Source: a plasmid. Taken from it: DNA of 64,000 bases. The stretch lies in the sequence record NZ_CP145666.1; one strand, 5' to 3'. The position numbers were made by a program. Positions 9,001-15,000 of the stretch are shown piece by piece (positions within the stretch are counted from its first letter, which is position 1; every line of letters begins with the position of its first letter).

Positions 9001-12000
9001 GTTCTGATTGAGGGATTTTTGCTAACGGCTTATGTTATTGCTGTCCGTTTTATTCAGTGCATTGTAAACAGGGCTGCATAAACAACCCGGACAGAATGCC
9101 CATCTATTTATATCAGGCTAATCTACGTGTGACATTTCAATCGCTGCGCGAGCTTCAATGCCCTTCGATAGCAACAAGTTTGCAATGCGCTCTGCGAGGT
9201 CTTGATTGGCGCAATGAAAGCGAATAGGCAACTTTTCATGTTTCTCACTATCGATGTAGAACATTACAGAATTGATACTGTATAGCGATGCATATGAAGG
9301 ACGAGGTTCTATCATCAAATTCAATTCTGGAATAGAAGCTAAAAGTTTAGACATATAATCATCCAGCAGTTCAATACAAACTGGCCGGATAGTTAATAAA
9401 GCGGGATTTTCCTCCGAACTAGTCCATTGTCGTGCCTGTAATCTCAAAATATTGAGAAGGTGCAACGATTCATAAGGAATTGTCTTTCCCGTCCGTTCAC
9501 CCAGGATAACGGATTCCAATGTGTTAATTCGGGATGATAGTCTTCTTATCTTCCGCAACTGATAGATGCTAAGTGTTAATGTTATCACAAATAAAACACC
9601 CAAAATAATTGCCATATTTATATCCCATTCGGTTTATTCGTATTATGCCGTGAATATCGATACTCCAGCTATAGGTGTTCGGGACATCCTCTACGCCGGT
9701 AGTATCTGCAAAAACTTGTTATTCCATCATATAGTGCATCTCTGAAAACACCTTTTTCGGGTGATACAGCCTTTCATTACTCGGTTCCCCTTTTATGCTG
9801 CTACCTGCCTATCAGGTGGTTAGTATGCTTACCAGCCACTTTTTACTATATTGTCCGTTTTGTTAACTGATTTGTTAATGCTTCCATTTGACAGGTCTGG
9901 AAAGATACTTTTCTGATTTTAGGGGTTTGAGGGCCAACGATGTAAAAAACCACGTTAATAGGTTAACCTATTGTTTTATTTTAATTATTAGGTGCTGCAT
10001 TTACAGCTACTCCAATGATCATGGGGCTGATGGTCGATGGAACGCAATACCAAGTAGATTGATTGCATAAAGTTCCTTCAATTCCGATCTGCCCTCCCGT
10101 TTTCACATCCTACTTCAGTTCAATTTTGTTGCCATTCCTTTACAACAGCTTCCCAATTGGCCGTTCTCTCGACCAATTTCCCATCAGCATCCTTTCTTGT
10201 CCAAACATCCCAGAAATCAGGGTCATCAGAATGGGGTTGCTGCTCTTTCGTCAAATTTTTCATTTTAACTAAGACAGGAAGTTCAGATGCCCAGCCCATC
10301 AGTATTGCATGTTGAGATGGCAATGAAGGCAATTCACGGAGTAATCCTCGCAAATTGTCGGGTACCATTTTATGAACTTGCTCCTGATCTTTGTCATTGC
10401 TAATTCGATGCAGAAGAAAAGTATTACATTGAGATAAAACTGTAGGTGATAATTCTGATGGTCGTTGCGAAGAAATAACCATACCGAGACCAAATTTCCT
10501 GCCTTCTCGTGCAATTTTCTCAAATACTTGACAGCAAACAGCTGCGACATCCTGATTTTCACTGTCCTCACGATACCGTTTAATAAATGTATGTGCTTCT
10601 TCAGCAACAAGTACCGTAGGTAAAGATTTGTTATATAGTCGTCTATAACGTTGCAATGATTCAAAAATAATTCTTGAAATGACAGCTGTCACAAGATGAG
10701 TAATTTCAGTTGGTACTAAAGAAAGATCAATAATTGAAACGCAGCTATCACCATCACCATCTTTCCCAATATATGTTTCTAACCAATTAGCCAAGTCAAC
10801 TCTATGCTCTGAGTCATTGGTTATGGGTTTCATTCTTGTATCCGCAAGCATTGTGCGTATTCTAGCTACTAGATATTCAACATATTGCTCGCTACCATTT
10901 TCTTGTGCTAACGCCTCTAAATAGGAGACTAAATTATTTCCGTCAAAAGGGACGGGGATATCCTCGTTTTTAGGAAGGAGTTCACACTCATCGCCTCCAA
11001 GGCTCTGAAATGAAGATAACACTCCATTTATGATGTTATCAACTGCGCTAACTTTAGCATTGTAATCTGGATATCTGCCTTCTCTTTGCCCACAAAAATC
11101 TTGAATAGAGATGATTAATTTATCTAGCTCAGGGCATGGTGTAGTTAATCTCGCTTTGTATTCTTCCAGACTCTGACGCCAAATATTAATTTTAGCCAAA
11201 AGATTTTTGGCTCCAGGGAAATCATTAAGTGCCGCTGCTCCTTTAGATTTATCCGCTTTTAAAGAAACCAAAATTGTACCTAGGTATTTTTTAACTTCTA
11301 TATCTATATTCTTTTGTAAATCAAATTCTTCATTTCTCATTGCTCTCAAGGAGCGTTTTAGTAATGGAAGTTGTGCTTTAGGACTTGCTTGCGTGAATGA
11401 TGCCCACTCCGAACTATTCCAAAACCATGAGGGTACTTGTAATTGGTTTTCACTGCCTTCAGCCTCAACCTTAAATACTCTACCTTTAAATTTCGTCGTT
11501 GGCCCCAAAGCACGTGCATACTCGCCGTTGGGGTCTAGGATGATAAATCTGGCATTTGGTTTTATTTGTGATTCCAATGCAGATTCGAGTGACCACTGGA
11601 TTAATCCAGATACAGAGCAAGACTTACCGCTACCAGTATTTCCGAGCACTGCTATATGACGACCAAATAATCTATCAGGATCTACAGCTACATTTGCATT
11701 GTTCGCAAGTGGACTTTGTCCAATGATCACTCGCCTATTATTTCCAGATTCGACTATTGATCTAAGTTGTAAATCTGTCGGTAGTAAAATAGCAGCCCCA
11801 ATAGAAGGAAACGATTCAGAACCTCGTTGAAATCTGAAATAATCAGTACCATCTTTGGACAAACGTTTAAGCATTCCCACCGGATTCAAACTTATTTTTT
11901 TTCGGGGGAATGGTAGATTTACTAAACCAAATTCTTGAACATCTCTTTGTTTTGGATAAGGCGAATGTTCTACAGCAAGCCACTCTATTTGCCCAACTAA

Positions 12001-15000
12001 GTAACCATTATCACATGATATTAATACATAACTGTTTACTCTTGGAAAGTTTCTAGGCGTTCCTGCATTCAAAGCAACAGTATCAGGTGAGTCAATCTCT
12101 AATATTGCTCTAATTTCATTAGGTGAAACAAAATCTACAGTGCCGACCCTGAGTTGCTCACCTTGTTCAATCGGAAATGAGTTCATTCAGCATCCTCGCT
12201 ATTATTTGAAATTGTTGTACGATATAAACCCCTTGATTTCAATAGTTCTGCCATACGAATTGATGATCTGTCTATCGCTGCTTTAGGAAGATAAAAATCC
12301 ACTAAATTCTTGATATCTCCAAAGTGGTCACCAAGTAATAAAGATATTTGAGCTTTTCTTCCACTTTCGTTTACAAAGCGCATAATTCTACCGAGTGGAT
12401 CGCCGTAGGCAATTATTACTATATGCGTTGAGGGTATTGTCAGCATGTCAATAATAACACGGTTTATATGTTCATCTCCAAAACTATAACCATATGTTAC
12501 CAAAGTACTATTAGGACGACATGTTGCAGATGCTAAGTCTCTGAATAGTTCAACATAAGGGTATTCTGATGTTTCTCGGTCTTTAACCGAGTTTGGATAA
12601 ATCATTAATTGATGATAGTTCGCTGCTCCAGCAGCCTCCACTTGTAAAAAGGGTTCCACCGAACTCGCACCAAAAGGTAATCCAAATCGCCTTATGGCTC
12701 CTTCGGTAGTATACCAGTCCAATGAGCCATGTAATTTAGTAAAGCGCGCCACACCTTCCAAATATCTTGGTTCACCACGAATACCCGGTGGATTATAATG
12801 ATAGTCGACTTCTAGTCGCGAAGATCTGAAAATAGGCGCTATAGTACCAACAAATCTGTCAATTAGTCGAATACCTGCTATTTCAGCTCCTGCTTCAATT
12901 ATCCTGTCGTAATTCGTCGTGAAAATATGTAATCGATCCCTTGTCGCTGTTCGACTTGAAAAACTCATCAAAAAACTTACTAAATAATTAAACGTTTGTG
13001 TTTTTAAATCGTTTTTTGCATCGCGAATTAACTTTTCCCCATTACTAACTGAATCTGAGAATAATTTCAAACATCTTGTTAGCTCATTATTTAACTCAAC
13101 TAACTCACTTTTTAAATTTCGATATGGGAGAGCACCAGGAGGCGGTTCTGGAAGTGGGAGATTTTGCGCAGTTAAAATCTCTAATCCTTTAATTAACTCA
13201 TTAATTGAACGGATTTGGTCTTCAATATTACCTCTTCCTCTTCCTGAGGCTTCAGCTGTTTTAGCTACATAACTATCTATTTCAGCCTTGCAAACTTTGA
13301 GATCATTAATCCATCCCATGCCTTGAGGTTTCGTGCCTGTCGCTGACTCTTGGATTGCTGAACTAAGTCCCGCGCCAATAAGTATATTTAGGTGTTCAGA
13401 CTGAAAAAGAGCAGTTAACCAAGGTTCTATTCTTAAACGCAAAAAATCAGGAGTGATTTTATCTCCTGGTTTTGCCCATGAGCAGTGTCCAACAACTTTA
13501 AATGCACCAACTTCGCTGTGTGGATCCAACTGAACCGGAGACTGGTCATCTCCAAGCTTTAAGTATTGACTCACTTTGAATTCATCCTTCGTTAGAGTTA
13601 ATAGCTGTTTTTCTTTTCAGCCTAAAATAGGTCGCCCTTGATATACCCGTTTTTTCCATTACTTCCTTAACTTGTACGTCCTTATTAATCAATTCATTAG
13701 CTAATTCAGCCTTCTTGTGAGGCTTTCTTCCGAATTTGACCCCCTTAATCATAGCGGTCTTCCGCCCATCGTTAGTTCGCTCCAAGATCCTTTCTCGTTC
13801 CGCCTCGGCAACAGCTGCTAGTATCTGGATAACCATTTTTCCCATTGTGCCTTCAGTACTAAGACCATTCTCTAGAAATCGGATAGCGATGCCTTTTTTA
13901 TAGCAAGTATCCACAATACGAATCATATCAGCGGTATTACGTCCTAGACGATCCATTTTAGTACAGAGGATGATGTCATCTTTCTCCGCTCTGGCAAGGA
14001 GTCTCTGTAGCCCTGCACGCTCATCAGTTGCTCCTGACATCATGTCAGTAAATACACGATCATCCCTCACTCCCGCTGTTTTGAGTTCAGTAATCTGGCT
14101 CGTCAGTTTCTGATGGCTGGTTGATACTCTTGCATATCCTAATAATGCCATTTTGGTCTCATAAATCGATAGGCACTGTTGCAAAGTTAGCGATGAGGCA
14201 GCCTTTTGTCTTATTCAAAGGCCTTACATTTCAAAAACTCTGCTTACCAGGCGCATTTCGCCCAGGGGATCACCATAATAAAATGCTGAGGCCTGGCCTT
14301 TGCGTAGTGCACGCATCACCTCAATACCTTTGATGGTGGCGTAAGCCGTCTTCATGGATTTAAATCCCAGCGTGGCGCCGATTATCCGTTTCAGTTTGCC
14401 ATGATCGCATTCAATCACGTTGTTCCGGTACTTAATCTGTCGGTGTTCAACGTCAGACGGGCACCGGCCTTCGCGTTTGAGCAGAGCAAGCGCGCGACCA
14501 TAGGCGGGCGCTTTATCCGTGTTGATGAATCGCGGGATCTGCCACTTCTTCACGTTGTTGAGGATTTTACCCAGAAACCGGTATGCAGCTTTGCTGTTAC
14601 GACGGGAGGAGAGATAAAAATCGACAGTGCGGCCCCGGCTGTCGACGGCCCGGTACAGATACGCCCAGCGGCCATTGACCTTCACGTAGGTTTCATCCAT
14701 GTGCCACGGGCAAAGATCGGAAGGGTTACGCCAGTACCAGCGCAGCCGTTTTTCCATTTCAGGCGCATAACGCTGAACCCAGCGGTAAATCGTGGAGTGA
14801 TCGACATTCACTCCGCGTTCAGCCAGCATCTCCTGCAGCTCACGGTAACTGATGCCGTATTTGCAGTACCAGCGTACGGCCCACAGAATGATGTCACGCT
14901 GAAAATGCCGGCCTTTGAATGGGTTCATGTGCAGCTCCATCAGCAAAAGGGGATGATAAGTTTATCACCACCGACTATTTGCAACAGTGCCTCTCGATAG

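Follow-up and report, generated by a model that had tools for sequence, protein, structure and literature searches.

A Sir2-HerA gene pair of a diverged clade on the cargo arm of a truncated Tn3-family transposon in plasmid NZ_CP145666.1

Sir2-HerA systems, two-gene abortive-infection modules composed of a SIR2 NADase and a HerA-family ATPase, are the closest described relatives of a gene pair, sir2-herA, found in a stretch of 64,000 nucleotides of the plasmid record NZ_CP145666.1 (hereafter the window, always meaning this whole stretch). In E. coli, Sir2-HerA loci form eight clusters, and defence was shown for Nezha and for types I-III, which share a mutual identity of only 13-22% (Zhang et al., 2026, NAR; PMC13434337). 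The phage SSB (T7 Gp2.5) and Gp5.9 trigger the type III system; its HerA possesses a nickase activity lost in D218A and a DNA-end-stimulated ATPase activity lost in K188A, and its Sir2 NADase, for which ATP acts as a checkpoint, is lost in N238A (PMC13434337). In Nezha of V. cholerae, the substitutions N168A and H227A abolish defence (PMC11559045). Solved complexes of related systems include Nezha of E. coli (8j4u, 8su9, 8sub; Sir2 WP_021577683.1), the SIR2-HerA system of Paenibacillus sp. 453MF (8w9l, 8wiv, 8wld), and DUF4297-HerA (9c1m, 8xau, 8ziq).

Both genes of the pair are encoded on the minus strand. The gene sir2 (12183-13574) has a GTG start preceded by the Shine-Dalgarno sequence AAGGA, and its product of 463 amino acids is predicted to be a SIR2 NADase of the defence type. 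The gene herA (10120-12186) has an ATG start and encodes a HerA-family ATPase of 688 amino acids. Stop and start codons of the two genes overlap by 4 bp (ATGA, seen within GCTGAATGAAC). The SIR2 protein possesses the motifs NILIGAGLS (residues 63-71, with GAG at 67-69), TTNYD (219-223), and KLHGS (280-284), in which Asn221 and His282 represent, by their position, the putative catalytic pair. HerA possesses the Walker A motif GNTGSGKS (182-189, including Lys188), the Walker B motif LVAEEAH (526-532), and Asp218 within ILDPNGEY. An earlier note, made from the sequence alone, had reported two open reading frames (ORFs) on the same strand with this overlap, and both were found at the coordinates it gave, together with all motifs that it quoted. 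Its description of the pair as more AT-rich than the flanks also holds, with a GC content of 38.8% vs 49.4% in window positions 1-7800 and 53% in the resistance region (14172-40000), although the AT-rich tract itself is wider than the pair (approximately 7801-14171, 39.8% GC). A serine recombinase gene at 13582-14151 (Pfam Resolvase, 134.6 bits) and an adjoining IS26, starting at 14172, were confirmed as well, but they precede the pair rather than follow it, as the order along transcription is IS26 transposase, recombinase, SIR2, HerA.

By sequence and synteny, the assignment of the pair to Sir2-HerA is secure and not a matter of chance. In a search with the defence hidden Markov models of PADLOC, as the earlier note had suggested, the dedicated SIR2 model PDLC04079 (517 bits, E = 7e-156) and the dedicated HerA model PDLC04098 (820 bits, E = 3.6e-247, profile positions 4-685 of 686) were matched, both over nearly their full length. 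Pfam detected SIR2_2 with 32.2 bits (cut-off 24.5) and DUF87 with 80 bits, also above its cut-off. Among solved structures, SIR2 matches the E. coli Nezha Sir2 (8j4u_A, 1e-21), while the matches of HerA are HerA chains from various defence complexes, the best being 8wiv (7e-49). The HMMER alignment to 8j4u_A places N221 on N168 and H282 on H227, so that the catalytic Asn and His are both present. The residues G67, G69, T219-D223, and K280-G283 of SIR2 are invariant in 43 homologues with 57-85% identity, as are Walker A, D218-Y223, and E529-H532 of HerA in 31 homologues. When the PDB was searched by fold with the AlphaFold model of Sir2, the top 24 matches (E <= 1e-5) were Sir2 chains of Sir2-HerA complexes, far ahead of a SPARSA chain at rank 25 (E = 0.012) and of classical sirtuins. 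In all 79 related loci out of 79, from many phyla and with 46-100% Sir2 identity, a HerA homologue is located directly downstream of SIR2 on the same strand. The PADLOC scores, the aligned catalytic residues, the fold matches, and the gene order bear out the earlier proposal of a Sir2-HerA-type NADase/ATPase defence pair. We consider it very likely that the two genes of sir2-herA constitute an intact abortive-infection system of the Sir2-HerA (Nezha) family that belongs to a diverged clade and is situated on the cargo arm of a Tn3-family transposon.

By homology to the described systems, Sir2 and HerA would form one large complex that is quiet in healthy cells. Phage infection would activate this complex, upon which Sir2, with Asn221 and His282, would hydrolyse NAD+, and after the loss of NAD+ the infected cell would no longer support phage growth. 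HerA, through the Lys188 ATPase and Asp218, the counterpart of the reported nickase determinant of type III, may sense the infection or gate the response. NADase activity and phage protection by the window pair are what we infer from its sequence.

Similar to Nezha of E. coli, the window pair has the same gene order, its Sir2 aligns in TTNYD and KLHGS, its HerA has the Walker A and B motifs, and the Nezha chains are among the best fold matches of its Sir2. Nevertheless, the relationship is remote, with approximately 20-23% identity in fold alignments. The sequence match of Sir2 covers only the C-terminal half, and that of HerA reaches 1e-31. The window Sir2 has about 50 additional N-terminal residues, and the window HerA, with 688 residues and a long, predicted helical insert, is larger than the Nezha HerA of 610 residues. 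Nezha of V. cholerae (N168/H227) also belongs to the canonical lineage, outside the clade of the window pair. The best PDB sequence match of HerA comes from Paenibacillus sp. 453MF, whose HerA of 696 residues likewise has an insert between Walker A and Walker B, and whose FDIHGEY aligns with ILDPNGEY of the window protein. In contrast, the Sir2 of Paenibacillus sp. 453MF matches the window Sir2 weakly (2e-8 over 65 residues). DUF4297-HerA has a similar HerA ATPase core (1e-42 to 1e-44), but the partner in the window is a SIR2 protein and not the DUF4297 nuclease.

The defence system itself is already known, as it belongs to a catalogued family, its clade has dedicated PADLOC models, and the proteins are named in RefSeq. 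The identical RefSeq proteins are WP_004098990.1 and WP_004098991.1. RefSeq uses the names 'SIR2 family protein' for one and 'DUF87 domain-containing protein' or 'ATP-binding protein' for the other, contrary to the expectation that standard annotation would leave both genes hypothetical. DNA identical to window positions 9000-14300 is present in at least 91 plasmids of PLSDB, mostly MOBH plasmids of 200-340 kb from Citrobacter, Klebsiella, Enterobacter, Kosakonia, and E. coli, and the genes carry these names there as well. In E. coli, the lineage was found in 61 out of 5426 complete genomes, and 62 of its 69 places are on plasmids. The commonest E. coli allele shares 89.6% DNA identity and 94% protein identity with the window.

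Comparison with these alleles revealed the vehicle of the pair. The window and the E. coli allele are homologous over exactly 9922-14055, a stretch that includes the recombinase gene and stops at an IS26 truncating the E. coli copy. At its outer end, a Tn3-family terminal inverted repeat (IR) of 38 bp, GGGGTTTGAGGGCCAACGATGTAAAAAACCACGTTAAT, is located at 9922-9959 on the plus strand. This sequence occurs a single time in the window, with 0 occurrences expected by chance. Its first 16 nucleotides correspond to the IR of the Tn3-based Tn6454, as quoted in PMC8560879, and its 3' end is ACGTTAA. Between the IR and the stop codon of herA there is a non-coding stretch of 160 bp (9960-10119, minus strand), which the E. 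coli variant retains along with the genes and in which a consensus scan detected no terminator-like site. At the other end of the pair, the recombinase gene (13582-14151, minus strand) is tnpR, encoding a resolvase of the Tn3/gamma-delta type with 189 amino acids, the catalytic Ser10, and an altered 3' end. The best PDB sequence matches, aligned over residues 1-179 of its product, are those to Tn3 resolvase (5cy1, 2e-49) and to the resolvase of gamma-delta (1gdt, 3.5e-49), whereas invertases reach only approximately 1e-25.

An intact element was found in a Cedecea contig (L057), organised as left IR, tnpA on the opposite strand, a res-like spacer, tnpR, sir2, herA, and right IR. In this element, the IR known from the window has its inverted partner at the opposite end. 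Its transposase has 1026 amino acids, with DDE_Tnp_Tn3 (504 bits) and DUF4158, and the res-like spacer of 87 bp (9256-9342 of the contig) includes the palindrome GTCTCA-ATGTTATAAATT-TGAGAC. The L057 copy showed no flanking target duplication of 5 bp. The element is likewise intact in pSYM6 of E. coli G3/10, and the intact copy L089 also holds tnpA. At least 80% of the 7.5-kb element is present in at least 81 plasmids, among them pSYM6 and a C. freundii plasmid with blaOXA-181, where the annotation lists ISEcp1 in the matching region. In the intact transposon, sir2-herA is the sole cargo. The layout is that of the Tn3/gamma-delta (Tn1000) subgroup, whose intact relatives share the order IR, leftward tnpA, res, rightward tnpR, rightward cargo, and IR; the IR of the Sir2-HerA element starts with GGGGTTTGAGGGCCAA and ends with ACGTTAA, as in this subgroup. 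Different from Tn3, sir2-herA takes the place of bla, and the window holds only the arm with tnpR, cargo, and IR. According to these sequence comparisons, tnpR-sir2-herA-IR is the cargo arm of a Tn3-family transposon of approximately 7.5 kb that is intact elsewhere. The earlier note had placed the pair on the plasmid backbone beside a recombinase; this recombinase is instead the resolvase of the transposon whose cargo the pair is. Resolvase and IR are confined to the Enterobacterales lineage, and farther relatives of the pair lack both, which indicates that the resolvase is part of the vehicle and not of the defence system. In the searchable literature, we found no paper joining Tn3, HerA, SIR2, and transposon, and no description of a 7.5-kb Tn3-family transposon carrying Sir2-HerA; pSYM6 appears there only in a genome announcement.

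Copies without IS26 (L008 12153-12440, L057 9256-9342) carry a res-like region with GTCTCA(a/g)ATGTTATAAATT(g/t)TGAGAC and GATTTAT repeats. Upstream of this region, L008 has no tnpA but a coiled-coil ORF of 139 amino acids and then ISKox1. The 139-aa ORF was considered as a tnpA remnant and rejected, having no significant Pfam match. The arrangement in L008 suggests an older recombination at the res site, or a deletion.

Other lineages related to the pair have different surroundings. The clade with 70% identity is found in an E. coli chromosome (GCA_051217495.1; L007 7316-12418), where it is flanked by an Ogr/Delta-family gene and a gpD-like gene (Phage_GPD) belonging to a P2-like prophage, and a member of its cluster occurs on at least 1000 contigs. 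The lineage with 82% identity (P0009), present in the Logan contigs DRR817146 and SRR24915845 (L005/L006), is preceded by umuD/umuC-like genes (with the domains Peptidase_S24 and IMS) and by a gene for a methyltransferase-like protein of 216 amino acids, with neither resolvase nor Tn3 IR. In L005, the HerA of this lineage is split into two ORFs.

The window copy is, by comparison with the intact element, a truncated, non-autonomous remnant of the transposon. The second IR is absent from the whole 64-kb window; tnpA is missing next to the module, and the window nowhere shows DNA homology to the tnpA of L057. Of the transposon res site, nothing was found in the window beyond a remnant of the former res/promoter region, consisting of 20 bp upstream of the ATG of tnpR (14152-14171, minus strand), where L008 and L057 have approximately 90-290 bp of res-like sequence. 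The remnant ends at the first of five IS26 (14172-14991, minus strand), with terminal repeats GGCACTGTTGCAAA at 14172 and 14978-14991 and a transposase gene at 14224-14946. This IS26 stands in the place of res and tnpA and marks the start of the resistance region, and its transposase gene is co-oriented with tnpR-sir2-herA. Across plasmids (window, L002, L003/L004, and L009), IS26 abuts the module in at least four positions, corresponding to the sites after 14171, 14139, 14055, and 13993 of the window, in both orientations and with tnpR variously truncated. This variety of junctions could result from repeated insertions or from adjacent deletions mediated by IS26.

Several observations weigh against reading the pair as an intact and active system with the properties of the described ones. 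The scores against the NCBIfam equivalogs are far under the cut-offs, with 118 bits vs 500 for the anti-phage SIR2, and 227 and 188 bits vs 850 and 800 for the anti-phage HerA. The pair therefore represents a distinct clade and not the canonical Nezha lineage, and the trigger and the enzymology of this diverged clade may differ from those of canonical Nezha. The AlphaFold model of Sir2 is only moderate, with a mean predicted local distance difference test (pLDDT) score of 67 and less than 50 for residues 239-339, and that of HerA is unusable (mean pLDDT 45). Type III of E. coli probably belongs to the clade of the window pair, the link being one of residue numbering: the numbers of the mutated type III HerA residues, K188 and D218, recur in the window HerA, whereas the Sir2 residue is N238 in type III and N221 in the window, where the sir2 ORF is not extendable upstream. 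In the sister lineages P0009 and P0022 (80-82% identical), Sir2 is called 17 residues longer (480 amino acids) with Asn at 238, and HerA has K188 and D218 as in the window. The numbering of the 70%-identical clade from E. coli P2-like prophages (K186, D216, and N227) does not fit that of type III. An assignment of the window system itself to type III is accordingly a lead given by residue numbers and not a result. If both belong to the same clade, the window system would be expected to respond to phage SSB and Gp5.9, to have a HerA with nickase activity, and to control its NADase through an ATP checkpoint.

The remaining adverse points concern expression. The alignment with L003, L057, and L089 revealed a deletion of 81 bp in the window allele, specific to this lineage, by which tnpR lost its final codons and the entire spacer between tnpR and sir2 disappeared. 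At the deletion site (13575-13600), a new tnpR stop codon is located 7 bp before the GTG of sir2, with the Shine-Dalgarno sequence retained. Since the spacer is deleted, there is no room for a promoter of the pair's own, and with tnpR and sir2 fused and res lost, sir2-herA would be transcribable only through tnpR. Possible sources of transcription are a cryptic promoter and read-through of the IS26 transposase gene. A consensus scan detected 17 promoter-like sites vs 14.4 +/- 3.1 in shuffled sequence, which is no excess. Expression of the pair in the window plasmid is uncertain, and the system could be silent.

These observations on expression form the case for the alternative that survives best, in which the pair is a true Sir2-HerA system but a silent or decaying hitch-hiking cargo without a role in phage defence of the host in the window plasmid. 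IS26 has removed the res and tnpR promoter region, the deletion took a spacer kept by all other alleles, promoter-like matches are not enriched, and tnpA and the second IR are missing. Nevertheless, neither ORF is shortened, all catalytic residues are present, AAGGA precedes the GTG start, the identical, undisrupted module occurs in at least 91 plasmids from several genera, and the IS26 transposase gene points into the operon, which makes read-through plausible. We therefore regard silent cargo as unlikely, and the reading as an intact abortive-infection system as the better one.

Other Tn3-family transposons carry toxin-antitoxin pairs. By analogy, sir2-herA might mainly stabilise the transposon or the plasmid in the manner of an addiction module rather than defend against phages, as the intact transposon carries nothing else as cargo, and the pair adjoins tnpR and encodes an effector that is toxic by nature through NAD+ depletion (PMC13434337). 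However, the same pair is also found outside any transposon, namely in a hotspot of a P2-like prophage and on chromosomes from many phyla, related Sir2-HerA systems protect against phage, and an antitoxin-like logic is not evident, so that a stabilising role is very improbable. That the SIR2 protein belongs to another system (Thoeris ThsA, DSR, Argonaute-associated SIR2, or Avs5), with an incidental HerA neighbour, is hardly credible: the PADLOC Aga_SIR2 models gave weak matches of 36-47 bits and a SPARSA chain appeared in the fold search, but the best SIR2 model reached 517 bits against at most 47 for the Argonaute-associated ones, there is no TIR, Argonaute, or STAND partner nearby, and HerA is adjacent in 79/79 relatives.

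The HerA alleles of the transposon family differ in a localised manner. In blocks of 40 residues, the window HerA and that of pSYM6 are 88-100% identical, except for residues 281-400 (22-50%) and 441-480 (62%), while Sir2 and TnpR are 93-94% identical overall. Residues 301-400 are also the least conserved part of HerA in the 31 homologues, with 49-70% column identity vs more than 90% in most other blocks of 20 residues. The variable insert (approximately residues 281-400) is predicted to be helical and lies outside the parts aligned to PDB structures (14-264 and 458-678). As judged from these alignments, the HerA alleles within the transposon family are mosaic. The insert may be an exchangeable specificity module, which we propose only as a hypothesis.

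Taken together, a 7.5-kb Tn3-family transposon with Sir2-HerA as sole cargo may circulate in Enterobacterales plasmids, with the HerA insert as a possible exchangeable cassette for phage sensing or inhibitor escape, and the capture of its cargo arm next to IS26 arrays in resistance plasmids may lead to co-selection of abortive-infection immunity by antibiotics. We put this combined scenario forward tentatively and hold it to be somewhat doubtful as a whole. On large MOBH plasmids of Citrobacter, Klebsiella, and Enterobacter, the location of a phage-defence pair right next to a multiresistance region bounded by IS26 matters for phage therapy directed at strains with such plasmids. Furthermore, a Tn3-type vehicle with a sole cargo, and HerA alleles that differ almost only in one insert, offer a handle on phage specificity in this clade. 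The cargo context in a Tn3-family element, the truncation and deletion that cloud expression, and the localised variability of HerA go beyond the earlier note.

The same note had described the locus as a phage-defence island, which was overstated. Eight flanking ORFs were compared with the PADLOC models without a match: an ORF of 537 amino acids with an HNH domain, the ORFs 3240-4163, 7809-8186, and 9118-9615, and four ORFs in 53350-63913. Among the flanks tested, the pair is a single defence system rather than an island. The 537-aa ORF (6080-7693) has only a C-terminal HNH_2 domain (residues 434-482) and is named 'HNH endonuclease' in related plasmids. Outside the transposon IR, the AT-rich stretch 7801-9921 (approximately 38-41% GC) contains four small ORFs (7809-8186, 8523-8729, 8830-9081, and 9118-9615), which are conserved with the MOBH plasmid backbone. 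These had no family match in the libraries each was scanned against, and Pfam gave none for 7812-8108, 8523-8726, and 8830-9078. In sister plasmids, other defence- or toxin-like genes are present beyond IS26 (L001 17226-18776, pCAV1857-208; L002 13799-18506, a Kosakonia plasmid), encoding DUF1883 plus a TIR-domain protein, a HEPN/Toprim-associated protein, and an NAD+ phosphorylase of the RES family; the window has none of these genes.

On the other side of the module, five IS26, with starts at 14172, 17592, 32849, 50905, and 58432, delimit a resistance region of mosaic structure and approximately 45 kb (14172-59251). No plasmid of PLSDB contains 80% or more of window positions 14900-39800 in one place, the best reaching 48%. 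The resistance region opens with an aac(3)-IIe-like gene (14987-15895). A second Tn3-family transposase gene (53350-56511; 1054 amino acids, DDE_Tnp_Tn3 494 bits) was considered as the tnpA of the Sir2-HerA transposon and rejected, as it has no detectable DNA homology to the tnpA region of L057. It adjoins a gene for an MFS transporter on the opposite strand, and our guess is that this region (53350-57744) represents a Tn1721/tetA-like unit.

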